The notes beneath the pieces are model-generated. The model was not told the origin of the DNA and did not search any database. It worked only from the letters and a program-made list of their open reading frames with translations. 64,000 nucleotides of DNA. Origin: Nitrososphaerota archaeon (GTDB taxonomy: Archaea > Thermoproteota > EX4484-205 > JAAOZP01). The stretch is taken from NCBI GenBank assembly GCA_011605725.1, contig JAAOZP010000012.1, positions 74,238 to 138,237 of the forward strand, written 5' to 3'. How positions within the stretch are numbered: the stretch's first letter is position 1; each line of letters begins with the position of its first letter. Of the stretch, positions 1,570 through 31,782 are shown piece by piece. The translations under genes were made by a program, and so were the position numbers.

Positions 1570-3147
1570 ATGAGCGAAAGAGTTGTGATGAGCATCGACC
1601 AGGGGACCACGGGCTCCCGAGTCTCACTGTATAAGCATGATGGAACACCTTATCCCAACGGCTGGTGTTACGTTGAGCATTCGCAATCCTACCCTAAACC
1701 CGGCTGGGTTGAACATGATCCTGTTAAAATATGGCTGAACGTTAAGCACTGCATCAGGAACGTTCTGGATAAGACTGGCGTTAAACCAGGAGAAATTGTT
1801 GCGATAGGCGTCACGAATCAGCGTGAAACAGTCGTGGCTTGGAACCCTAAGACAGGAAGGCCTGTTTCAAACGCCATCGTGTGGCAGGATCGCCGGACAG
1901 CTAAGCTGGTTGACTATCTCCGGGAGAACTTTTTAAAAGACATTGTCGAGAAAACCGGTTTGATTCCAGATAGCTATTTCTCAAGCACAAAGATATGGTG
2001 GATGCTTGAAAACATCAAGGGTCTACGTGAAAAGGCTTTGAAAGGAGAAGTCGTTTTCGGAACGGTAGACACATGGATCATATGGAACCTGACGAATGGT
2101 TCTCGAGATATTCAAACCCCGGAGTACAAGGGTGCATTCGTAACCGATTACAGCAACGCGTCTAGAACAATGCTCTTCAATATTCACGGGCTCATGTGGG
2201 ATGAGGGCCTTGCTGAAATACAGGGTAAAATACCTGTCGAGGCGCTTGCAATACCAAGGCCTAGTAGTGATAAAGAGGTTTACGGATGGACTGGCCCAGA
2301 GGTTTCAAGCCTTTTTGAAGGCTTAAGCAAGCCGGTGACCGGCGACGCTGGAGACCAGCAGGCTGCTTTACTTGGCCAAGCAGGGTTTGAACCCTACGAT
2401 GTGAAATGCACCTATGGCACAGGTAACTTCATACTGATGAATACCGCAGGGAACAAGGTGCACTCCAAGTCCGGGCTGCTGACCACAATACTCTACAGTG
2501 TTGAACCGGGTAAAGCAGTCTATGCTCTCGAGGGAAGCGTTTTCATCACCGGTGCAGCAATCCAATGGCTTCGCGACGGTTTGAAGATAATCGAGGTCTC
2601 GGGGGAAGTGAATCCTCTCGCTGAAGCTGCTGAAGACACAGGCGGTACTTATTTCGTACCGGCCTTCACAGGGCTTGGAGCACCCTACTGGGATCCGTAT
2701 GCGAGGGGCATGATTATAGGTTTAACTAGGGGGACAGGCAGGAGGCATATTGCTAGGGCGGTTTTAGAATCCATCGCATACTTGACTTGCGACGTGGTTG
2801 AAGCAATGAGCAACGATACTGGCAGAAGGGTGGAAAAACTTAAAGCAGACGGCGGCGCATCACGGAGTGACTTCCTGCTTCAATTCCAGTCTGACATACT
2901 TAATGCAACTGTCGTCAGGCCTTTTGTGCAGGAGACAACCAGCCTGGGAGTAGCTTATCTTGCTGGCCTCGCCGTGGGTTTCTGGAGAAGCATAAGCGAA
3001 GCTAGGAAAAACTGGAGGATAGAGAAAGAGTTTTCCCCTAGGATGAGCCGGGAAGTTAGAGAGAGACTGTATGATGGTTGGAAGGCGGCTGTTAAAAGAT
3101 CATTAGGATGGGCTATGGAAGTACCTTGGGCCTATGGCTACGAGTAG
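1570..3147 (+). CDS. glpK: Glycerol kinase
   Basis: 525 aa FGGY kinase; N-terminus SIDQGTTGSRVSLY...YPKPGWVEHDPVKIW is a close match to the GlpK signature; start may be the internal Met at 1588. Confidence 0.9.
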   Translation: MSERVVMSIDQGTTGSRVSLYKHDGTPYPNGWCYVEHSQSYPKPGWVEHDPVKIWLNVKHCIRNVLDKTGVKPGEIVAIGVTNQRETVVAWNPKTGRPVSNAIVWQDRRTAKLVDYLRENFLKDIVEKTGLIPDSYFSSTKIWWMLENIKGLREKALKGEVVFGTVDTWIIWNLTNGSRDIQTPEYKGAFVTDYSNASRTMLFNIHGLMWDEGLAEIQGKIPVEALAIPRPSSDKEVYGWTGPEVSSLFEGLSKPVTGDAGDQQAALLGQAGFEPYDVKCTYGTGNFILMNTAGNKVHSKSGLLTTILYSVEPGKAVYALEGSVFITGAAIQWLRDGLKIIEVSGEVNPLAEAAEDTGGTYFVPAFTGLGAPYWDPYARGMIIGLTRGTGRRHIARAVLESIAYLTCDVVEAMSNDTGRRVEKLKADGGASRSDFLLQFQSDILNATVVRPFVQETTSLGVAYLAGLAVGFWRSISEARKNWRIEKEFSPRMSREVRERLYDGWKAAVKRSLGWAMEVPWAYGYE

Positions 3148-3175
3148 ACAGGGATAGGTTAGCAGGTGGCTCACA

Positions 3176-4687
3176 ATGGTCGGCGAGACCCGTGTCGCGA
3201 TAATAGGTGCCGGAGTCATAGGGGCCTCTATAGCAAGGGTTTTAAGCAGGTTTGAAAACCTGCAGGTCTACGTTTTAGACGAGAACTATGATGTCGGCGG
3301 GGAAGCGAGCAGGGCGAATTCTTCAGTAATACACCCAGGTCACGAAGAGGATCCTGACAACCAGCCTTTGCGCGCGAAGCTCTGCACCGAGGGTAATGCT
3401 CTCTGGAGAAGATGGTGCATGGAGCTTGAGATCCCTGTGAAATGGGTTGGAGAGCTCATGCTTTTCGAGAGAAACGAGGATGAGAAGGAGGCTGAAAAAT
3501 ATGTGGAATGGGCTCATAAAAACAACGTGGCAGGCGTAAGGATTCTGCGAGAGGAGGAACTGTTTGAAATGGACAGCTCCATAAACAGGAATGTTAAAGG
3601 AGGTGTTTATGCTCCCACGGCAGGCCTAATTTCTCCTTTTGAAGCCGTCGTGGCCCTAGTGGAGAACGCTGTGGATAATGGGGTTAGGCTTCTCACGGAG
3701 ACGCGCGTCAAGAGAATCGTCGTCAGGAACAATGTTGTTGTAGGCGTTGAAACCAGTAAGGGGCTTATTGAAACAGATATTGTAATCAACGCGGCAGGAT
3801 TGAATGCTGACGAGGTGTCTCGCTTAGCAGGAGTTGAACCCTGGTTCAGAATAAAGCCTAGGAAGGGGGAATACATTATTTTCGATAAAGAAGCCGAGCC
3901 TAAGCCAAGCCTTGTGCTACACACGATGCCCACACCCATCACTAAAGGAGTTTACGCATCGACGACTGTACATGGTAACCTTATGATAGGGCCGACCGCC
4001 GAGGACCTTCCTTACGAGAAGAAGAAAGACACGTCTACAAGCCTGGAAGGCTTGGAACACTTGGTTAAGGAGGCTGGGAGAATACTTTGCAAAGTACCGC
4101 CGCGCTCGAGAATCATAAAGTTTTTCGCAGGGTTGAGACCTGAACCACCCGATGGGAAATGGTTGATAAAAGCCTATTCTCAACCATACGGGTTCATCAA
4201 CGTCGCAGGCATAAGGTCTCCAGGCTTAACGGCTGCGCCTGCAATAGCAAACCATGTTTTAAGCCTTATTACGGAGACATATGGGCTTAGACTAGTTGAG
4301 AAAAAAGGATGGAGACCATTCAGAAGGCAAATAGCCTGTGTCAGCGAGATGGATTACGACATCCTTGAAAAGCATATCTCAGAGAATCCGGATTACGGTG
4401 AGATAATCTGCTTCTGCAACAATGTTTCTAGGGCAGAGGTTTCAGAAGCCATTGAAAGAATGCGGAGGATCGGTGTGAAGACCATTACTTTCGACGGAGT
4501 GAAGCTTAGGACTACCGCAGGATTCGGAAAATGCCAGGCTTCAAGATGCAAGATACGGATGGCCCTTTTAATATCTGAGGCAACAGGAACACCTCTCTGC
4601 AACATCATCATGAAGAAGTCGAGCATCGGGGTTGGAGGAGTCAAGACACTTTGGACCCAGAACAAGGAGAGTATGAAGAATGATTGA
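3176..4687 (+). CDS. FAD-dependent glycerol-3-phosphate dehydrogenase-like oxidoreductase (GlpA-like) with BFD-type [2Fe-2S] domain
   Basis: N-terminal FAD fold VAIIGAGVIGASIA; C-terminal Cys cluster ICFCNN...GKCQASRC typical of the BFD-like domain; directly downstream of glpK. Confidence 0.7.
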   Translation: MVGETRVAIIGAGVIGASIARVLSRFENLQVYVLDENYDVGGEASRANSSVIHPGHEEDPDNQPLRAKLCTEGNALWRRWCMELEIPVKWVGELMLFERNEDEKEAEKYVEWAHKNNVAGVRILREEELFEMDSSINRNVKGGVYAPTAGLISPFEAVVALVENAVDNGVRLLTETRVKRIVVRNNVVVGVETSKGLIETDIVINAAGLNADEVSRLAGVEPWFRIKPRKGEYIIFDKEAEPKPSLVLHTMPTPITKGVYASTTVHGNLMIGPTAEDLPYEKKKDTSTSLEGLEHLVKEAGRILCKVPPRSRIIKFFAGLRPEPPDGKWLIKAYSQPYGFINVAGIRSPGLTAAPAIANHVLSLITETYGLRLVEKKGWRPFRRQIACVSEMDYDILEKHISENPDYGEIICFCNNVSRAEVSEAIERMRRIGVKTITFDGVKLRTTAGFGKCQASRCKIRMALLISEATGTPLCNIIMKKSSIGVGGVKTLWTQNKESMKND

Positions 4688-5930
4688 GCAGAAGTATGAC
4701 GTTATCATCATAGGTGGAGGCCCAGCCGGATTATCAGCTGCAGCCAAGGCTGTTGAAAACGGCTTGAAAACCCTGCTGCTTGAAAACAGGGAAATGCTGG
4801 GCGGCATCCCGTTTCAATGCGTTCACACAGGCTTCGGAATTCATTGTTTTAAGGAAGACTTAACCGGCGGCGAGTTTATTGCTAGACTCATAGATAGGGC
4901 GGTTGAAAAAGGCGTGGAAACCATGGTTAAAACACATGTTTTAAAGATTCAAGTCTACTCAGCGCTGGAGAAGACTGTTTACGCAGCCAGTCCAAAAGGC
5001 TTTTTAAAAATCCAGGCTAAAGCAATAATTTACGCTGCCGGTGCGCGTGAGAGACACCAGTATGAGATTGGCCTAGCTGGGGATAGGCCTGACGGTGTTT
5101 ACACGGCTGGCGAGGCCCAGGCCTTAATGGATGTTTACGGCGTCCTACCGGGTAAGAAGATAGTTATCATAGGCTCTGGAGACGTGGGACTCATAATGGC
5201 GAGAAGGCTTGCAATGGAGAGGGCTGAGGTTAAGGCTGTGATAGAAGTTTTACCATATCCAGGTGGCTTAACGCGAAACATCGTTCAGTGTTTAAACGAT
5301 TTCAACATTCCGCTTTACCTGAGCCACATGGTTCGCGAGGTTAAGGGGAGTGAAAGGGTTGAAAAAGTAATTGTAACAAGGGTTGGTGAAGACATGAAGC
5401 CGGACGGTAGCTTTGAATTCGAGCTTGAATGCGACACAGTCATTGTTTCAGCCGGGTTAAAGCCAGATGTTGATATTCTCGAGAAGATTGGTGTTGAAAC
5501 TGATCCTGCAACCGGGGGACCGGTTGTGAACGAGTTTTACGAAACCAGTGTGCCACTTGTCTTCACAGCGGGTAACGCGCTTGTCGTAAACGATCTTGTA
5601 GACTACGACGTGGAGCAGGGTGAGGCTGCAGCAACCCATGCTTTAAAACTCCTGGGAGACTACCTATCTCCACGGTTAGAATGGAGGCGGGTCGAAAGGG
5701 GGAGGAACATAAGGCTCATAGTGCCTCAGCTAGTAAGCGGCTCTAAGGACGTCGTGTTTTACAGTAGGGTTCAGTATCCTGAAGACAATGTGCGGCTCAC
5801 AATTCGGGAGACAGGGTTTGAAAAAAGGTTTTTCAAGGTTAAGCCAGCGGAGATGATTAGAATCATGATTCCGGCTGAAGAGCTGGCTAAAGCTCGTAGG
5901 GGAAAGATCACTTTCGAGGTGGTTCGATGA
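4680..5930 (+). CDS. FAD/NAD(P)-binding oxidoreductase (pyridine nucleotide-disulfide oxidoreductase-like partner of GlpA-like protein)
   Basis: N-terminal YDVIIIGGGPAGLSAA and second dinucleotide motif KIVIIGSGDVG; start overlaps the preceding stop by 8 nt. Confidence 0.6.
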   Translation: MIEQKYDVIIIGGGPAGLSAAAKAVENGLKTLLLENREMLGGIPFQCVHTGFGIHCFKEDLTGGEFIARLIDRAVEKGVETMVKTHVLKIQVYSALEKTVYAASPKGFLKIQAKAIIYAAGARERHQYEIGLAGDRPDGVYTAGEAQALMDVYGVLPGKKIVIIGSGDVGLIMARRLAMERAEVKAVIEVLPYPGGLTRNIVQCLNDFNIPLYLSHMVREVKGSERVEKVIVTRVGEDMKPDGSFEFELECDTVIVSAGLKPDVDILEKIGVETDPATGGPVVNEFYETSVPLVFTAGNALVVNDLVDYDVEQGEAAATHALKLLGDYLSPRLEWRRVERGRNIRLIVPQLVSGSKDVVFYSRVQYPEDNVRLTIRETGFEKRFFKVKPAEMIRIMIPAEELAKARRGKITFEVVR

Positions 5931-23943: not shown

Positions 23944-24381
23944 TCAACTTTTCCCCTTCCACCACTGGAACAGCTTTTTACTAAGCTCATGTATCTTCCT
24001 AGCGCTATCTATTGCTTTCTCAGCATCCTCCCTGGAATATAGCTCCCTAGGCGGGATGAAGGCATTCTCATCCCCGTAGAAAGCCGGACCCCTTTCTCCG
24101 GCAAGCCTTTTACTCGCAATACTGATTGTTTCCAGTTCAAATCTAAACCAGTCTGGAAGAACTCTTATGCGAGCGATTTCAGCCAATGCATCGCTGACAT
24201 CGTGCTCGCGTGGATACTCTACGCCAAGTAGTCTGAGAACAGCCTTCAGGCTTAGTTCAACGCTTTCCTGCGCCCTCCTAACAGTTCTGTGATACATCTT
24301 TTTGGCTAAGGCTTCTTCAGCCTCGTAGAGGGAATACTCAGCATCGTCAAGATAGCCTCTAGCCATAGCCTCGGTGTTCAA
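23944..24381 (-). CDS. HEPN domain protein (toxin-antitoxin partner of MNT)
   Basis: 145 aa helical protein immediately downstream of and overlapping the nucleotidyltransferase gene; R-x-x-H-like element in VEYPREHDV. Confidence 0.65.
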   Translation of the reverse strand: MNTEAMARGYLDDAEYSLYEAEEALAKKMYHRTVRRAQESVELSLKAVLRLLGVEYPREHDVSDALAEIARIRVLPDWFRFELETISIASKRLAGERGPAFYGDENAFIPPRELYSREDAEKAIDSARKIHELSKKLFQWWKGKS

Positions 24382-24917
24382 ATCTCAACGACCTCGCCAG
24401 GTTTTATATCGGGTTTCAGATCCCAGAGCCACGTTCCATTCTTAAGGTAAATGCGTCTAGCTTTGAGTTCATCCAGCCTTTTCCTAAGGTTGGTGAAAAT
24501 CGATTCCATAAAGCCATCTTTGTCAACCAAGATAACGGCATCCTCAACCATATCCAAGTATATTGGCCTATGGAACTTTGCCTCCTCCGGAGTAAGAGGG
24601 TAAAATTGCACCCATGTGTTAACACCCTTCTTTCCAAGCTCTTTATACACCGGGGTTTCTCTAAGCTTAATCAGGATCCTAGCCATAATCTCCATTTTTT
24701 CACTAATCCTTTTAGGAAGATTCTCTGCCACAAGGAGGATATCTGTGTCGCTAGTCGGCTTAGCGTCTCCCCTGGCTACGGAACCAAAGACAACTAGGCT
24801 CACCAGTTTTTCTTTAAAAAAATCATTAAGAAGATTAATAATTTCTTTAATGAATTCTCTTCTATCCGGATCTATTATACTGGTTAATCCATATCTTGGC
24901 TTCATCGATCCTTGCAT
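24378..24917 (-). CDS. Minimal nucleotidyltransferase (MNT), Pol-beta superfamily
   Basis: 179 aa; diagnostic LVVFGSVARGDAKPTSDTDILLV (GS...DxD) motif. Confidence 0.85.
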   Translation of the reverse strand: MQGSMKPRYGLTSIIDPDRREFIKEIINLLNDFFKEKLVSLVVFGSVARGDAKPTSDTDILLVAENLPKRISEKMEIMARILIKLRETPVYKELGKKGVNTWVQFYPLTPEEAKFHRPIYLDMVEDAVILVDKDGFMESIFTNLRKRLDELKARRIYLKNGTWLWDLKPDIKPGEVVEI

Positions 24918-25665: not shown

Positions 25666-26196
25666 TTAACTAATGCTGGCAACCTCTGGTGGGTGAGCTA
25701 AGCTGGAAGTCGAATACTTTTGCTTTCTCCACGGGTTCTTATAAATCTCTATGACCTCCGATATTACGTTTGGCAACTCCTCTGGCCTACCGACGCCGAC
25801 CCCGGGGCATATGAAAGCATATTGATTAAAGTAAACATAGTATGTCTCACCCTTATAGTAAAACTCAGCCTCACCGCAGCTTACGGATTTTGGCTTCCTG
25901 TAAACCAGGAAGGGCCATACCTTACAAGAAAACGGTTTTAGGCCCAGCTCATGCAGACTGCACAACCCGTATTCGTCCAGAAAGACACATCTCCCACCAA
26001 TTTTTCTCAAGTATGGCTTCACATCAACAACCACGGCCTCCGGCATTAGCTCAAAAATTTTCGCATACTCGTAGGGGCTGAGGGTCACTTTAAACTTCGT
26101 GCAACACTCTCCACACCTGAGACAGGCCCAGGACCCCACTCTTCTCCAAGGTATTTCCCCAACCATTTTTTTCCCTACCAGGTGGCAGTAATGCAT
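25666..26196 (-). CDS. YkgJ-family zinc/iron-chelating (CxxCxxCC) domain protein
   Basis: 176 aa; LRCGECCTKF motif and further Cys residues typical of the YkgJ family. Confidence 0.55.
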   Translation of the reverse strand: MHYCHLVGKKMVGEIPWRRVGSWACLRCGECCTKFKVTLSPYEYAKIFELMPEAVVVDVKPYLRKIGGRCVFLDEYGLCSLHELGLKPFSCKVWPFLVYRKPKSVSCGEAEFYYKGETYYVYFNQYAFICPGVGVGRPEELPNVISEVIEIYKNPWRKQKYSTSSLAHPPEVASIS

Positions 26197-26354: not shown

Positions 26355-27362
26355 TCAGAGATCCGTGTAATCAAGCACTACTGGGAGCCCGGGTAGGACC
26401 GGTATTCTAGTTAGGCTGCTCGCCATCCTCCAGGCTTCTATGCTCCACTTACGATGCGCAGGGGTTTCCGAACCCTTATCTTTTATTGAGAAGGCTTTCG
26501 CGAGCATTGGTGATGATGCTATGATTGATGAGACTATTCCGCCTAAGAGGCCCAGCGGATTATTCAGAAAGAATGTTGCTAAAAGCCCAGTTAGCAAGCC
26601 TACTGCGGCGAGGGCTGCTGAGGCGGTTAGCATTGTTGCCCGTGACCTAGTGCTTAACGGGTACTCGACAAAGAGGACCCTGCCCCCGGCCGCGTCCAGG
26701 AGAATCCTGTACGGCTTACCCTTGTAAGCGTACTCCATTAGCCAGAACGGGTAGTGGACTAGCCCAAGATAGTTAACTTCAACCCTCTCAAGCCTCTTTG
26801 AGCCTCCGCAGCTCCTGCTAGCTTCATCCATAGCCTGCCCAGATATTAACCGGTACGCGATATTATAGGCTTCCTCGTAGCTCAAGGTAGGCATGTAGAA
26901 CCTGCTTCTCTGGGCTTGACTCGGGTTGAAGAAGCTTCTCCCCCTCACCGAGAACGAGAGTTCCTTGGCATGGTTGTCGAGCCAGGTGCCTGTGTACGCT
27001 GCCAGAATAGGCGTGTTCCGCGTCTCAAGGTAGCTGGCCTGCCTGTCGCCGTAGGAGCAGGAGGAGTATGCCTTGCAGCTGAAAACATGATAGGGAACGT
27101 TGTAGAGCTCAGCTTTGCGAAGATTAGCCTCAGCGTTGAAATCGTCAGGTACGCCGTACCTCCTGGTTATGAACTGCATTGCTTTACGCCAGGCTGACGG
27201 GCTCTCCACGTAGGCTGGAAACATGTAGTATGTCCAGGTCTTCCCGGTTGAAAGCTCGAAGGTGTGGCCGCAGTAGGGGCAGACGATTATTGAGGCTGAT
27301 TGCGGCGCGTTTATAGAAGCGTTGCAGTTTAGGCACGTGACTGTCTTCATGCTCACTTCCAC
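26355..27362 (-). CDS. Uncharacterised protein: N-terminal zinc ribbon, central conserved domain, C-terminal transmembrane hairpin (paralog A)
   Basis: 335 aa; CLNC...CPYC ribbon, internal W-x3-Y-x-YKG-x2-YR motif (FWLMEYAYKGKPYR), C-terminal hydrophobic segments; start overlaps paralog B by 10 nt. Confidence 0.5.
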   Translation of the reverse strand: MEVSMKTVTCLNCNASINAPQSASIIVCPYCGHTFELSTGKTWTYYMFPAYVESPSAWRKAMQFITRRYGVPDDFNAEANLRKAELYNVPYHVFSCKAYSSCSYGDRQASYLETRNTPILAAYTGTWLDNHAKELSFSVRGRSFFNPSQAQRSRFYMPTLSYEEAYNIAYRLISGQAMDEASRSCGGSKRLERVEVNYLGLVHYPFWLMEYAYKGKPYRILLDAAGGRVLFVEYPLSTRSRATMLTASAALAAVGLLTGLLATFFLNNPLGLLGGIVSSIIASSPMLAKAFSIKDKGSETPAHRKWSIEAWRMASSLTRIPVLPGLPVVLDYTDL

Positions 27363-28315
27363 TTCTCCTCCCTAACGTCGCTAACAGCCTTACTCGCCAG
27401 GAGGGCTCCGGCTGCTGAAACAAGTATGAAGCCGAGTACTGGAAACCATTCTCTGAAAGACGGCAGGAGGGCCAGTATGAAGGCGCCTGCCGCAACTGAC
27501 AGGATGCTTCCGAGTATGTACAGTATTCTCTGGCCTAGGAAGACTGGTTCCGAAACCCTTAGGAATTGAAGGTTGTAGCCTGAGACGCTTGCCCTATACA
27601 TTCCACCCTTATACTTGTATACGAGGCTCCACATCGGAGCCAGCAGTATCCAGAGCGAGTTCACCCTGGCCTCGCAGGAATAATAGTAGAAGCCGTCTAA
27701 GCCGTTGGATGAGCGTGTGCTTTCCCTCAGCTCGTCCTCAACCATGTCCTTAAGCTCGTCCTCAGCCTCCTCAGGGAGAAGCTCAGCGTTTAAAACCTGT
27801 AGCCCAACGTTCCTCCAGTCTACCGCAGCTAGGGGTTGAGGGTCTTTAGCGGACTTCGCCTGGCTCACAAGCTCCTCCAAGCCGTACTCAGCAGCCTCCC
27901 TCCTAGCCGTGAAGGCGAGCCTCATCGAAGTGTTGAAAGACCCTTTCTTCGTCACGGTCCTGGTGACGAACGATTTACCCCTTTTCTCAGTAACCCTCCG
28001 GAAACCGGACCACTCGACGAAAGCGGAAACATCCCCCATGAGAATCGGCACGTAGAAGCCCTGAGCCTCGACAAGCTCAATGTCGCCGTAGACCCTGCTC
28101 ATATCCGGGTCGCTCCTCATCCTGCTCCAGAAGGCGTTCACCACCTCATCCCTTGTCCGAGTCGGCAGTATGAATATTTCAAACCTCCCTGTTGAGAACC
28201 AGTTAACCGTCCCACAGTATTCGCACACGCATGCTATTGTCTCAGGAGTGTAATTCAAGGGAGCACCGCAGTTTGAGCATTTGAAGACCTTTTCAGATAT
28301 GGTTGACTCTGTCAA
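27353..28315 (-). CDS. Uncharacterised protein: N-terminal zinc ribbon, central conserved domain, C-terminal transmembrane hairpin (paralog B)
   Basis: 320 aa; CSNC...CEYC ribbon, motif MWSLVYKYKGGMYR, two C-terminal hydrophobic helices; start overlaps upstream gene by 4 nt. Confidence 0.5.
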   Translation of the reverse strand: MTESTISEKVFKCSNCGAPLNYTPETIACVCEYCGTVNWFSTGRFEIFILPTRTRDEVVNAFWSRMRSDPDMSRVYGDIELVEAQGFYVPILMGDVSAFVEWSGFRRVTEKRGKSFVTRTVTKKGSFNTSMRLAFTARREAAEYGLEELVSQAKSAKDPQPLAAVDWRNVGLQVLNAELLPEEAEDELKDMVEDELRESTRSSNGLDGFYYYSCEARVNSLWILLAPMWSLVYKYKGGMYRASVSGYNLQFLRVSEPVFLGQRILYILGSILSVAAGAFILALLPSFREWFPVLGFILVSAAGALLASKAVSDVREEKWK

Positions 28316-28716
28316 CGCCTACCAATCCTTGAAACCATTACCCCGACCACGACGATTATTATGAGGGATATGCTCAGGTTCAGCGGCAGGTTTCCGGTGA
28401 GAAGTGTTAGTAAGAGTGAGAAACCGAGGCAGCACATCACTAGTCCCCAAATAAGGTAATACTTAAAGTCGGCAGCGTAAATCGAGAAGAAAATAGTGTA
28501 GAACCCAAGCATGATGAGCGGCAGTGAAACTAGAGTAAGCGGTTCACCGTAGCCTGTTGAAAACAGTATGCCGTCTACGCCTATTGAGACTAGCAGGACA
28601 GCCAGCGCGTAGCTCCCATACCCGGCTTTTCTACTCATCTCATTAGCCTCACAACCACAAGGCGAGCTTTGAATATATAACTTTTCCCTCATCTTCGTCA
28701 AGGATTGAAGGGACAT
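28312..28716 (-). CDS. Small polytopic membrane protein
   Basis: 134 aa (or ~108 aa from an internal Met) with 3-4 hydrophobic helices; start shares one nucleotide with the ATPase stop (TAATG). Confidence 0.4.
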   Translation of the reverse strand: MSLQSLTKMREKLYIQSSPCGCEANEMSRKAGYGSYALAVLLVSIGVDGILFSTGYGEPLTLVSLPLIMLGFYTIFFSIYAADFKYYLIWGLVMCCLGFSLLLTLLTGNLPLNLSISLIIIVVVGVMVSRIGRR

Positions 28717-29996
28717 TACGCACCTCGCCTCAATTTCCTCGTTATGCTTGCCAATTCTTCTGGGCCAAGCTCCTCGTGAGAACCCGACACTCTGGGAGGC
28801 TTCTCGCTGAGACTTATGAGCCCTGCCCTCGGTATTCCTTGGGAATGAATTAGTTCTATAGATCTCCTAGCTTCACTCTCGCTGATCTCCCCTATCTTAA
28901 CTTCATACCCTATCATCGGGGCCCTGCCCTTCGAATCCAAGATGACTATATCCACATCCCCCTTCCCCCCAGGCAGAATCATGTAGCTCCTCACCCCTCC
29001 TAGATACTCGGCAAGCATCTCCCCCAGGCTAAACTGTAGCTCCCTACCCAACACGCTTAGAATAATGCCTTCATCTATTTTTACGCGCGGCGATTCGCTG
29101 ATGTTCAGCTTCTGGTCAAGATAATAGACTAGCGAGAGCAGGGGAGACCTGTGCTTGAAATAGTTCCTCGAACCCCTGGTTTTCCATAGCGGGATTTTCT
29201 CTAGAATCCCCATGCAGGTAAGCCTTTCAAGCAAACCGGTTACTGTTGGAAGGCCGCCAGATATCAGGTTGTTCGCGGTTAAAACCCCTGAGATCTCCGC
29301 TGGCATCCATATGCCTCCTCCCACTATCCTGATGACCGCGTCGTAAACCCTTGTTAACATCCTCTCCTCCTCCTCAAAAACCTCTCCGACAAGCCCAGGT
29401 GCTGACGCAACGAAGTATTGAATCTTATTGCGGATTTCTGAAAAAACATCCTTTTCGAATGAGACCATAGGGATCACCCATGGGTCTCGGACAATCAGCC
29501 CCCATAGTAAGGCGTTCCTGAGGGAAGAACATATCTTACTGAGAGAGAGAACAGCGTCAGAGTAGCTTATCAAGTCCACCTTGAATGGCGAGAACAAGCC
29601 TAGGAGAGGACTCTTTCTCTCGAAAACCCTTCTCACGATGCTGAGGCTCGAACCGCTTGCAACCAGCCTTCCGTTCGGATGGTTCGCGGCAATCGAGTCC
29701 CAATACTTATCTGGCAACCTTTGAAACTCATCCAATAGGACAACCCTTCCATCCCTCAAGAGGTTTCCGATACGTCTAACCGCCTCCTCAGGATTAACAT
29801 GTGAAAAACCGTTTTCATCCCAAGCGGCAACGCTGCCAGACCTGGTCACCATAAAGTAGTTAGACTGGGTGAAAACCCTTTTTAGCAGGAAGGTCTTCCC
29901 GGTTTTCCGCCTCCCGTAAACCAGTATCCATCCTCTTAGACCTCTTAATTCGTCTTCCTCTCTCCTGCTTACTACGATATGAGGAATATTCTCCAT
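28716..29996 (-). CDS. Archaeal-type AAA+ ATPase with C-terminal DUF234-like domain
   Basis: 426 aa; Walker A GRRKTGKT, Walker B VVLLDEF; architecture resembles the PF01637 archaeal ATPase plus DUF234 C-terminus. Confidence 0.65.
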   Translation of the reverse strand: MENIPHIVVSRREEDELRGLRGWILVYGRRKTGKTFLLKRVFTQSNYFMVTRSGSVAAWDENGFSHVNPEEAVRRIGNLLRDGRVVLLDEFQRLPDKYWDSIAANHPNGRLVASGSSLSIVRRVFERKSPLLGLFSPFKVDLISYSDAVLSLSKICSSLRNALLWGLIVRDPWVIPMVSFEKDVFSEIRNKIQYFVASAPGLVGEVFEEEERMLTRVYDAVIRIVGGGIWMPAEISGVLTANNLISGGLPTVTGLLERLTCMGILEKIPLWKTRGSRNYFKHRSPLLSLVYYLDQKLNISESPRVKIDEGIILSVLGRELQFSLGEMLAEYLGGVRSYMILPGGKGDVDIVILDSKGRAPMIGYEVKIGEISESEARRSIELIHSQGIPRAGLISLSEKPPRVSGSHEELGPEELASITRKLRRGA

Positions 29997-30094
29997 AGAA
30001 TATTCCCATTAGAATATTCTTATAAACTTTTAGCTTATCCTACACACCAGTTCAGATTTGCTTCTTAACTATCGAGTCTACTTGTTTATTCAAA

Positions 30095-31249
30095 CTATTG
30101 GAGCTTTGCACCACAATTGAGGCAGAACTTTGAACCCTCAGGCACCGTGGACCCGCATTTCGGACAGTTAACACTCTGAGGCTGCAACTGAGCCCCACAG
30201 TTCATGCAGAACTTTGCGCCAGCAGGGTTCTGCGTTCCGCATTTCGGACAATTCACCGTGGCCTGCATGGGTGCACCGCAGCTCATACAGAATTTAGCTG
30301 TGCTCGGGTTCTGCGCCCCGCATTTAGGGCACGCTACTGTTCCTGCTGGAGGCGCGGCAGGTGGCTGCGCCGGCGGCGGAGGTGCTTGGATGGCTGCGCC
30401 GCAGGACGGGCAGAACTTGCTTGTAGAGGGTACTTGAGCTTTGCAGCTTGGACATATGACCATTGGTGCTGCGGCAGCCTGCTGCATTAGCTGGGGCACC
30501 AGAACTATTCCTGTTCCAGCCGCCGCCCCGGGCGACTTGCTTAGGGACTCGGCGACGCTCTTAGTCGTGTCCATCGCCATGACTTGTGTCGCAGCGCCGC
30601 CGGTCTGCTTTATCCAGAACAGCCTATCCCTGTACTCCGGCGTGGTGTCGACGCCCTCAAACTTTAGGTCTATGACGTCTACGCCGACGCGCTTAAACTC
30701 CTCGTCTATCGTTGCCTTAACCTTGAACGAAACCTCCTCAAGCTTTGTGAAGACCGTCACAAGGTCGTATTTCGAGAGCTGCGTTATCAGCCTCTCGTTC
30801 ATGAAGCCCCGTAGAAAGCTGTTTACGGATTCGGTGGTGTAGGCGCTCTGCCCTCCCACGACCTCCATTACGAACGTCTTTGGGTCTCCAACTTTAAACC
30901 AGAATGCCCCGTAGAACTTCAGGGGTGCGAGCTCAACCGTCTGCCCGCTGGCTCCGAACAATCCTTTAAACTGCTTCGTGGAGACGAATATGACTGTGGC
31001 TTTGAAAGGCGTGGTTTCGAAGCCAGCCACCCTTGTTAAGACGCCTGTGAGCAGCGGAAGGTTCATCGTTGTTAAAGTATGTCTGCCAGGCCCGAAGACA
31101 TCGTAGGCTTTGCCGTCCCTGAAGAATATTGCAGCCTCATACTCGTGGACGATCAGCTGAGCACCCCAGGTTATCTCCTCCTTAGGGTATCTCCAGACGA
31201 TGTCTTCAGCCGAGGCCCCTACCCACTCTATTATCTGAGGCATCTTCAA
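30095..31249 (-). CDS. SPFH (stomatin/prohibitin-like) domain protein with four tandem C-terminal zinc ribbons
   Basis: 384 aa; N-terminal ~250 aa SPFH-like; C-terminus carries four CPxCG-x7-KFCxxCGA units separated by a Pro-rich linker. Confidence 0.6.
   Translation of the reverse strand: MKMPQIIEWVGASAEDIVWRYPKEEITWGAQLIVHEYEAAIFFRDGKAYDVFGPGRHTLTTMNLPLLTGVLTRVAGFETTPFKATVIFVSTKQFKGLFGASGQTVELAPLKFYGAFWFKVGDPKTFVMEVVGGQSAYTTESVNSFLRGFMNERLITQLSKYDLVTVFTKLEEVSFKVKATIDEEFKRVGVDVIDLKFEGVDTTPEYRDRLFWIKQTGGAATQVMAMDTTKSVAESLSKSPGAAAGTGIVLVPQLMQQAAAAPMVICPSCKAQVPSTSKFCPSCGAAIQAPPPPAQPPAAPPAGTVACPKCGAQNPSTAKFCMSCGAPMQATVNCPKCGTQNPAGAKFCMNCGAQLQPQSVNCPKCGSTVPEGSKFCLNCGAKLQ
30098..30460 (-). repeat. 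In-frame tandem coding repeats (four ~75 nt units) encoding the zinc-ribbon modules of the SPFH protein
   Basis: Repeated ccgcatttcggaca / ccgcatttagggca-type units read on the plus strand; all inside the CDS. Confidence 0.6.
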
Positions 31250-31782
31250 ACACCTCCCTTAATGGAGACTATCTCCTCCTCCCTGGAGGCTAAGGCTGAT
31301 TCAAGCTCTCTAGCCTTGGCTTCAAGCTGCTTCAAGAGACCGGGGAGAACATCCAGGCTTCCGGCGCTTGCAGCATTTTCAGCCTCCTCAGCTGTTCTAG
31401 AGACCTCTTCACAAGCTCCTAGAAGCCTATAGTCGTGCTCCATCAGCCTGTCGAGCTCAGCCTCACGAACTTTAACAAGGTCGAAGAAGCCCGCGTAACC
31501 GTAGTCAGCATGCTCAATCTTGTTTATAACCCTGTCTAGGACCGCGGAAACCCTGTTCAGATTCTTAAACAATTCGACCGCGTTTGAGTCGGCAGCCTCT
31601 CTTGAAACTGTTTTCAAACGGAACCTGGCTGCCTCAAGCTTTTTAACCATGAAATCTCTTAGAAGCTTATCTGCTTCCCTCCTAACCTCCTTCTGCTTGT
31701 ATCCCCTGTAGCCCGGGATGTAGGAAGCTATCTTCTCAGCCAGCCCTCTTTTCTCCTCATACTCCTTTATGAATTCGCTCAT
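31246..31782 (-). CDS. Coiled-coil protein of unknown function (putative partner of the SPFH protein)
   Basis: 178 aa, highly charged Glu/Lys/Arg-rich helical sequence; stop overlaps the SPFH gene start by 4 nt. Confidence 0.4.
   Translation of the reverse strand: MSEFIKEYEEKRGLAEKIASYIPGYRGYKQKEVRREADKLLRDFMVKKLEAARFRLKTVSREAADSNAVELFKNLNRVSAVLDRVINKIEHADYGYAGFFDLVKVREAELDRLMEHDYRLLGACEEVSRTAEEAENAASAGSLDVLPGLLKQLEAKARELESALASREEEIVSIKGGV

Follow-up and report, generated by a model that had tools for sequence, protein, structure and literature searches.

What does a cluster of four closely spaced minus-strand genes do in an archaeon whose annotation offers only hypothetical proteins and an ATP-binding protein for them (NHV99105.1, NHV99108.1), and do the four form one unit? 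The genes lie at positions 26355-29996 of a stretch of 64,000 nucleotides (nt) of contig JAAOZP010000012.1 from a Nitrososphaerota archaeon, hereafter the window, and they code, in order of transcription, for an ATPase, a small membrane protein and two related zinc-ribbon membrane proteins, paralogs A and B. An earlier reading of the window's letters (the sequence-only reading) had assigned them to a single operon encoding a membrane-anchored, ATP-driven module that mapped to no named pathway. All four open reading frames (ORFs) are present in the ORF list, and together they make up the downstream part of an operon that is conserved in archaea and is split here by an optional gene. For the locus as a whole, the explanation that we consider probable is an operon of YdjG-like anchors and an SPFH scaffold, in which the ATPase gene is an optional insertion.

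Paralogs A and B are almost certainly members of the YdjG family. They are 22% identical to each other over 294 amino acids (BLASTP, E 1e-7), and their family profiles align at 98.8% in hhalign (E 5e-17). Each of them has one N-terminal CxxC...CxxC ribbon, whose cysteines are invariant in the family alignments, and both contain a P-x-W-x3-Y-x-Y-x-G-x2-Y motif that is conserved across the family. The N-terminal regions are large and contain neither a signal peptide nor a transmembrane segment; the tether is a C-terminal transmembrane hairpin, recognizable as hydrophobic helices at about 260-282 and 291-311 in A and as a pair within about 242-288 in B. No Pfam or NCBIfam model covers the core of the two proteins. 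The Bacillus operon was retrieved via the published ydjG primer sequence (PMC8581546), and the YdjG used for comparison is that of Bacillus stercoris (L011, 2725-3750). Against this protein hhalign gives 99.7% for the A-family profile (E 1e-25, 259 columns) and 95.1% for the B-family profile (E 3e-8, 226 columns). Thus, the two paralogs with a ribbon, a W/Y/G motif and a hydrophobic hairpin described by the sequence-only reading are borne out by BLASTP, profiles, alignments, hydropathy and AlphaFold2 modelling, and the topology check that it proposed finds the C-terminal helix pair in both proteins. Its view that no named pathway applies is not supported, since the paralogs map to the YdjG family and the neighbouring SPFH protein maps to YdjI; that reading had agreed to be refuted by a match to a well-characterised housekeeping family, and the paralogs go part of the way, the family that they match being a described one.

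The YdjG family is extensive: an exhaustive search with the A-family profile returned 8598 clusters (at 50% identity) with E values of 1e-3 or lower and 4284 with values of 1e-10 or lower. Two ribbons are found in 91 of the top 150 family matches and one ribbon in 55, and most top matches combine two N-terminal ribbons with a single C-terminal transmembrane segment. Structure prediction of paralog A alone, another check that had been proposed, gave a confident AlphaFold2 model (pLDDT 89.3, pTM 0.79), consisting of the ribbon, two modules with one helix on a long antiparallel sheet each, two transmembrane helices and a short C-terminal strand. This strand (residues 314-318 of the model) is formed by an SDVRxE motif that follows the hairpin (27353-27400); the motif occurs in single-ribbon members of the archaeal type, and the YdjG-like sequences from bacteria in the family alignment lack it. 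Neither Foldseek nor sequence searches found a solved relative of A in the PDB, and the pore-toxin and secretin entries matched by the model were discarded as noise, with TM-scores of about 0.1. Ravi et al. (2024, PMC11237479) relate the central domain of YdjG to YpeB and describe it as an alpha+beta domain of NTF2-like type.

In Bacillus subtilis, YdjG belongs to the sigma-W pspA-ydjGHI envelope-stress operon (PMC8581546, PMC11237479). There, the membrane proteins YdjG and YdjH are needed for soluble YdjI, and via YdjI for PspA, to reach the membrane: foci of YdjI and PspA at the membrane are lost when ydjG or ydjH is deleted, and two-hybrid interactions have been reported as well (PMC8581546). 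The partnership of YdjG and YdjI has been published as a coupling in Firmicutes (PMC11237479). Bacterial relatives of the archaeal paralogs retain traces of the same company: at locus L004 the gene for relative P0054, a zinc-ribbon transmembrane protein, is followed by genes for a TPM-domain protein and a Band_7_1 protein, which corresponds to the ydjG-ydjH-ydjI arrangement of B. subtilis. In four other bacterial proteins (P0106, P0122, P0196 and P0164) a YdjG-like region is fused to a TPM_phosphatase domain; by the Rosetta-stone argument such fusions indicate a YdjG-YdjH link and confirm it among the bacterial matches. A 322-amino-acid gene that follows a p178-SPFH gene pair in Coatesbacteria (L015) was considered as a further YdjG relative and is not YdjG-like.

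Gene order was compared in a tblastn survey of 40 metagenome loci, together with contigs fetched earlier that encode relatives of A (L001-3, L006/7 and L009 among them). Over the roughly 45 related archaeal loci, the comparison revealed a conserved module, made up of a protein named p178 here, an SPFH/Band_7_1 zinc-ribbon protein, sometimes the small membrane protein, A and B. In a Thermofilaceae metagenome-assembled genome (L001-3) it consists of a 177-amino-acid protein, the Band_7_1/zinc-ribbon protein, a 107-amino-acid protein, A and B, and in a more distant lineage (L006/7) of a 170-amino-acid protein, the Band_7_1/zinc-ribbon protein, A and B; the ATPase is missing from both. Locus L009 has the five module genes, again with no ATPase, behind the same upstream neighbours as the window, a 2-hydroxyacid dehydrogenase and a GFO/IDH/MocA oxidoreductase. 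The order p178, SPFH, (small), A, B is found also in L017 and L020-23, and in L025 with an extra small ORF. In distant lineages (L040, L041, L043, L046-49) the order is A, B, p178, SPFH; thus, the p178-SPFH pair lies directly upstream of the A-B side in close relatives and directly downstream in distant ones. B comes right after A in every locus that reaches past A, while the small gene between SPFH and A is confined to the closer relatives. Overall, linkage of a YdjG-like gene with a Band_7_1 gene is observed in the window, in most archaeal loci surveyed, in bacterial L004 and in Bacillus. The boundary originally drawn around the four genes was too narrow, since the recurrence of the p178-SPFH/A-B linkage in related loci makes the window genes at 30095-31249 and 31246-31782 members of the module.

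The SPFH protein matches Pfam Band_7_1 with an E value of 1.4e-32 and Zn_Ribbon_1 in four stretches, and its BLASTP alignment with Bacillus YdjI (E 5e-18) spans the full length and takes in the C-terminal ribbon. A hydropathy scan of the protein found no transmembrane segment. In its C-terminal third (30095-30500) a linker rich in Pro and Ala precedes the four tandem ribbons, as against a single ribbon in Bacillus YdjI; among orthologs the number of ribbons varies, and protein length ranges from 316 to 384 amino acids. Its usual companion, p178, adjoins the SPFH gene in most loci and is predicted by AlphaFold2 to be a four-helix bundle (pLDDT 84), with two nearly invariant motifs, PGYRGYKxKExRRExD and ASYGYAGFFD. 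The 163 homologs of p178 come from both archaea and bacteria, the taxa including Thermoproteota, Brockarchaeota, Nitrososphaeria and Pyrobaculum on the archaeal side and Coatesbacteria and Anaerolineae on the bacterial one; a p178 homolog adjoins a Band_7_1/zinc-ribbon gene in a Coatesbacteria genome and is close to one in Pyrobaculum. The protein matches NCBIfam NF047596, the LIMLP_15305 family, over its full length (E 1.7e-14); at 54 bits against a family cut-off of 210 it is not a member by the NCBI criterion, and what the two have in common is that they are small, soluble and helical. In the literature no function was found described for p178 or LIMLP_15305, one paper merely listing the locus tag. 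Neither a PspA-like profile similarity nor an ESCRT-III-like helical hairpin fold was detected in p178.

The ATPase is, with very little room for doubt, a dispensable insertion at the junction of the SPFH and small genes. Among the surveyed loci it is carried only by the contig of the window itself (L016) and by L008 and L024, at the same junction in each. It is missing from L017, although the A and SPFH proteins of that locus are 97% and 99% identical to those of the window. By blastn, L017 positions 3-235 correspond to window 30250-30021 and positions 225-662 to window 28684-28250, so that the two flanks overlap by 11 nt. The overlap is a TATA-like direct repeat, present in the window as AAAAGTTTATAA (30020-30031) and AAAAGTTATATATTC (28671-28685) and in L017 as a single copy at the junction. 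Relative to L009 the segment is a clean indel, and in L009, L021 and L001 only about 5-10 nt separate the SPFH stop from the small-gene start. The L017 state looks like a deletion between the repeats, because L017 retains flanking sequences that L009 lacks.

The ATPase also appears to bring its own control elements. The TATA-like box AAAAGTTTATAA is centred about 27 nt upstream of its ATG, and three exact GAATATTC palindromes, spaced by 14 nt, straddle the start codon just downstream of the box. These are three of the four GAATATTC sites of the window, for which 1.1 would be expected in total, and the triple array is exact in L024 (4301, 4315, 4329) and L008 (1278, 1292, 1306). The array looks like an operator, perhaps for autoregulation through a putative winged-helix segment of the ATPase, and the gene looks like a self-contained, probably self-regulated transcription unit.

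The enzyme itself has the Walker A and B motifs noted in the sequence-only reading (GRRKTGKT, residues 28-35; VVLLDEF, residues 85-91) and scores above the cut-off of Pfam AAA_14 (E 8e-8, 32.8 bits against 27). Its N-terminal part shares 32% identity (E 6e-13) with the N-terminal domain of an ATPase_2+DUF234 protein of L029, and no similarity was found to a canonical AAA_14+DUF4143 protein from L008. The putative winged-helix segment and a nuclease-like motif of the form D...ExK (GDVDIVILD...YEVK) are both read from the sequence only. In the C-terminal half, residues 184-426 have no Pfam match even at an E value of 10, and neither DUF234 nor DUF4143 was detected there; sequence searches found no relative of the ATPase in the PDB. 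With the archaeal ATPase group (PF01637 with DUF234; PF13173 with DUF4143) it has in common the P-loop, the Walker A and B motifs and a dispersed, patchy occurrence, and it differs in a C-terminal half that has neither DUF234 nor DUF4143.

The apparent coupling of the ATPase to the genes that follow it depends on where the small gene starts. In an alignment of five, all homologs of the small protein begin at window Met27 (MS(R)K.GYG), and a start at this codon (28638) drops a 26-codon extension that is found in no homolog. Thus, the 1-nt TAATG overlap with the ATPase gene is an artefact of longest-ORF calling, whereas the overlaps of 4 nt between the small gene and A and of 10 nt between A and B are real and are seen again in homologous loci. 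From the ATPase stop codon to the conserved start there are 77 nt, and within them lies the second TATA-like box, AAAAGTTATATATTC, which is kept in ATPase-less L017. Counted from this box, the likely true start is about 39 nt downstream, at the Met27 codon with which all homologs begin. A hydropathy scan gives about 3-4 hydrophobic segments for the small protein. A 99-amino-acid gene after the SPFH gene of Pyrobaculum (L014) was considered as a relative of the small protein, and no relation was detectable. The lesson is that relying on the longest ORF produced an overlap of start and stop codons, and with it the impression that an ATPase gene which is inserted and self-contained belonged to the operon. 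The coordinates of the locus are collected in Table 1.

Table 1. Features of the locus, listed in the direction of transcription (window coordinates)
Feature	Position	Strand	Basis
p178, 178-amino-acid soluble helical protein, first gene of the module	31246..31782	-	ORF
SPFH protein, Band_7_1 domain, four C-terminal zinc ribbons, YdjI-like, soluble	30095..31249	-	Pfam, BLASTP
Presence/absence segment of about 1.34 kb bearing the ATPase gene	28684..30021	-	blastn against L017; clean indel relative to L009
Promoter/operator-like region of the ATPase gene	29984..30031	-	Sequence; putative promoter function
AAA+ ATPase, 426 amino acids, facultative, 'archaeal ATPase' group (AAA_14/ATPase_2), divergent	28716..29996	-	Pfam AAA_14
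Second TATA-like box, AAAAGTTATATATTC	28671..28685	-	Sequence
Small polytopic membrane protein, 108 amino acids from Met27	28312..28638	-	Alignment of five homologs, hydropathy
Small gene, longest ORF (134 amino acids)	28312-28716	-	ORF call; extension unsupported
Paralog A, 320 amino acids, YdjG family	27353..28315	-	Cys4 zinc ribbon, two alpha+beta modules, transmembrane hairpin, SDVRxE strand
Paralog B, 335 amino acids, second YdjG-family protein	26355..27362	-	hhalign against YdjG; directly downstream of A

Paralog B has an alternative start, an ATG at 27350, 2 nt past the stop codon of A. Immediately 3' of the cassette, after an AT-rich spacer, lies a gene for a CxxCxxCC-domain (PF03692) protein of 176 amino acids (25666-26196, minus strand), which is not kept beside A-B in other loci. 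About 1.4 kb downstream of paralog B, genes for a HEPN-domain protein (145 amino acids) and a nucleotidyltransferase (179 amino acids) overlap by 4 nt on the minus strand (23944-24917) and are a typical HEPN/MNT toxin-antitoxin pair. In the related loci, L008 has a flavodoxin-like gene between its two A-B pairs. Locus L029 has a CdvA-like coiled-coil gene (146 amino acids, PF18822, E 2e-15) and the ATPase_2+DUF234 gene (500 amino acids) at 1962-4057, 2-4 kb upstream of its A-B pair, and sufC- and sufBD-like genes downstream; there is no SPFH gene near this pair.

How could such a module work? A and B, probably as a heteromer because of their invariable pairing, would anchor the soluble SPFH protein on the inner side of the membrane, and the SPFH protein and p178 would build a sub-membrane scaffold serving membrane maintenance or the response to envelope stress. 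The ATPase would stand outside this machine; it belongs to the 'archaeal ATPase' group, whose occurrence is dispersed, and is probably a DNA-binding enzyme that is self-regulated. By analogy with Bacillus, we give the anchoring of the SPFH protein by A and B a somewhat better than even chance. A further step would be a PspA-independent scaffold or surveillance system, widespread in Thermoproteota and other archaea, in which p178 and the zinc-ribbon SPFH protein are combined with heteromeric YdjG-like anchors; this is offered tentatively and is more doubtful than likely. If it were true, p178 would take the effector or adaptor role that PspA holds in Bacillus, and the partnership of YdjG and Band_7_1 proteins would be far older and broader than a 'Firmicutes coupling', the p178-SPFH pair occurring in bacteria as well.

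Several observations weigh against an operon of anchors and scaffold with an optional ATPase. No TPM_phosphatase domain is found in the cassette proteins, the best E value for YdjH in a tblastn search of the window is 0.95, and tblastn of PspA gives no match at E values up to 10; with PspA and YdjH missing from the window, the analogy spans only two of the four B. subtilis components. In eight loci (L026-30, L038, L042, L050) A-B pairs occur with no SPFH gene within 6 kb, so that A and B can be encoded apart from SPFH and perhaps act apart from it. Furthermore, the ATPase orthologs of L008 and L024 occupy the same site and are 75% identical, about as diverged as their neighbours, so that the gene may have resided there for long and may have an accessory role in those lineages.

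The second of these observations could also mean that the A/B pair acts independently of SPFH, for instance as a membrane-tethered zinc-ribbon signalling or regulatory pair, and that p178-SPFH is mere neighbourhood, a view that we regard as improbable. The pairs do multiply in tandem independently of SPFH, with three pairs before p178-SPFH in L047 (1-6596), two each in L044 and L008 (2974-7362) and a further copy of A after one A-B pair in L051. The ribbon of YdjG matches a TFIIB-type Pfam model, and a regulatory role has been suggested (Popp et al., PMC9239133); moreover, cell shape is affected in ydjG and ydjH mutants of B. subtilis but not in those of ydjI and pspA (PMC8581546). However, the linkage to p178-SPFH holds in two gene orders across deep archaeal divergence (identity of A down to about 28%) and in Bacillota, which is hard to explain otherwise than by a functional link, and in ATPase-less operons start/stop coupling runs through the small gene, A and B directly after the SPFH gene.

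Alternatively, the ATPase could be an acquired accessory in those genomes that have it, such as a winged helix-turn-helix ATPase that regulates small-A-B or senses signals. One insertion site in three lineages, and a divergence similar to that of neighbouring genes, are what such a role would lead one to expect; the insertion places a second TATA-like box before small-A-B, and PSP-type systems have been tied repeatedly to AAA+ ATPases by comparative genomics (PMC11237479). Nevertheless, it is the start of the ATPase gene, and not the region before the small gene, that bears the operator-like palindromes, the distribution of the ATPase is patchy, and L017 resembles a simple deletion between repeats. 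In L025 the same junction is occupied by another small ORF (5304-5633), hydrophobic at its C-terminus, degraded remnants of which are found upstream of the ATPase in L024 (3952-4324) and L008 (837-1301); the junction therefore seems to be an insertion hot spot, which suggests chance of position rather than a functional link. As for the ATPase_2+DUF234 gene of L029, unrelated genes separate it from A-B and it is absent from the related locus L026. We think an accessory role has little chance of being right.

The remaining alternative is that of the sequence-only reading itself, in which the ATPase, the small protein, A and B are coupled in translation and form a single ATP-driven machine in the membrane, perhaps a defence system not yet described, and it hardly survives: the four genes do lie close together on one strand and recur in the same order in L008 and L024, the ATPase has weak PADLOC matches to the candidate families PDC-S01 (E 2.7e-8) and PDC-S27, and a HEPN/nucleotidyltransferase pair is near, but the ATPase is missing from most orthologous operons, L017 included, and has promoter-like and operator-like elements of its own, the TAATG overlap rests on a non-conserved extension, the core genes have homologs in an operon for envelope stress, the housekeeping dehydrogenase and oxidoreductase neighbours are kept in L009, viral contigs contain no close relative of the ATPase, and PADLOC has nothing for A or the small protein and one weak match for B (E 0.025). 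A defence system had been tried as an identity for the core proteins and was rejected, since PADLOC and PHROGs gave nothing for them beyond that weak match and PADLOC found no match at system level. Of the original proposal, membrane anchoring and the coupling of small, A and B are retained; ATP drive and the single operon are not, since the ATPase lies within the presence/absence segment. The four genes do occur together elsewhere, the absence of which that reading would have taken as its refutation, in the same order in L008 and L024, and most related loci have no ATPase.

The preferred explanation, YdjG-like anchors with an SPFH scaffold, bears on a very large protein family whose core has no Pfam model, which has no solved member and for which functional data come from one B. 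subtilis study only. An archaeal A-B pair beside a YdjI-like SPFH protein, where PspA and YdjH are lacking, marks the contact of YdjG and SPFH as the conserved core of the system, and the p178 family becomes a candidate SPFH partner in archaea and bacteria. The module thus provides targets for studying how soluble SPFH scaffolds attach to membranes and for the little-known biology of membrane stress in archaea. A search of the literature on Band_7_1/PF13421, LIMLP_15305 and DUF7351 did not find the archaeal operon described; the archaeal version of the anchors (an A-B pair with a single ribbon, a transmembrane hairpin and SDVRxE), the p178 partner and the absence of PspA and YdjH are, as far as we found, new to the literature.

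Judged by homology, the locus holds an archaeal version of the envelope-stress module ydjGHI, with a duplicated YdjG-like pair and a four-helix-bundle partner. As in pspA-ydjGHI, a YdjG-family membrane protein with a zinc ribbon and a C-terminal transmembrane tether stands beside a soluble SPFH protein of the Band_7_1 type with a zinc ribbon at its C-terminal end. Conversely, the YdjG-like gene, single in B. subtilis, is duplicated in the window into an obligate A-B pair; A and B have one ribbon each, a transmembrane hairpin and a conserved SDVRxE tail, where YdjG has two ribbons and a single transmembrane segment, and the SPFH protein has four ribbons instead of the one of YdjI. Gene order differs too, p178 and the small polytopic protein are additional components, and the hosts are archaea. 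Operons that pair an SPFH scaffold gene with a gene for a dedicated membrane-protein partner are known also from stomatin/NfeD and flotillin/YqiJ-YuaF (PMC11237479). Compared with these systems as they are described, the SPFH protein of the window has no transmembrane segment, and its partners are YdjG-like proteins instead of NfeD or YuaF.

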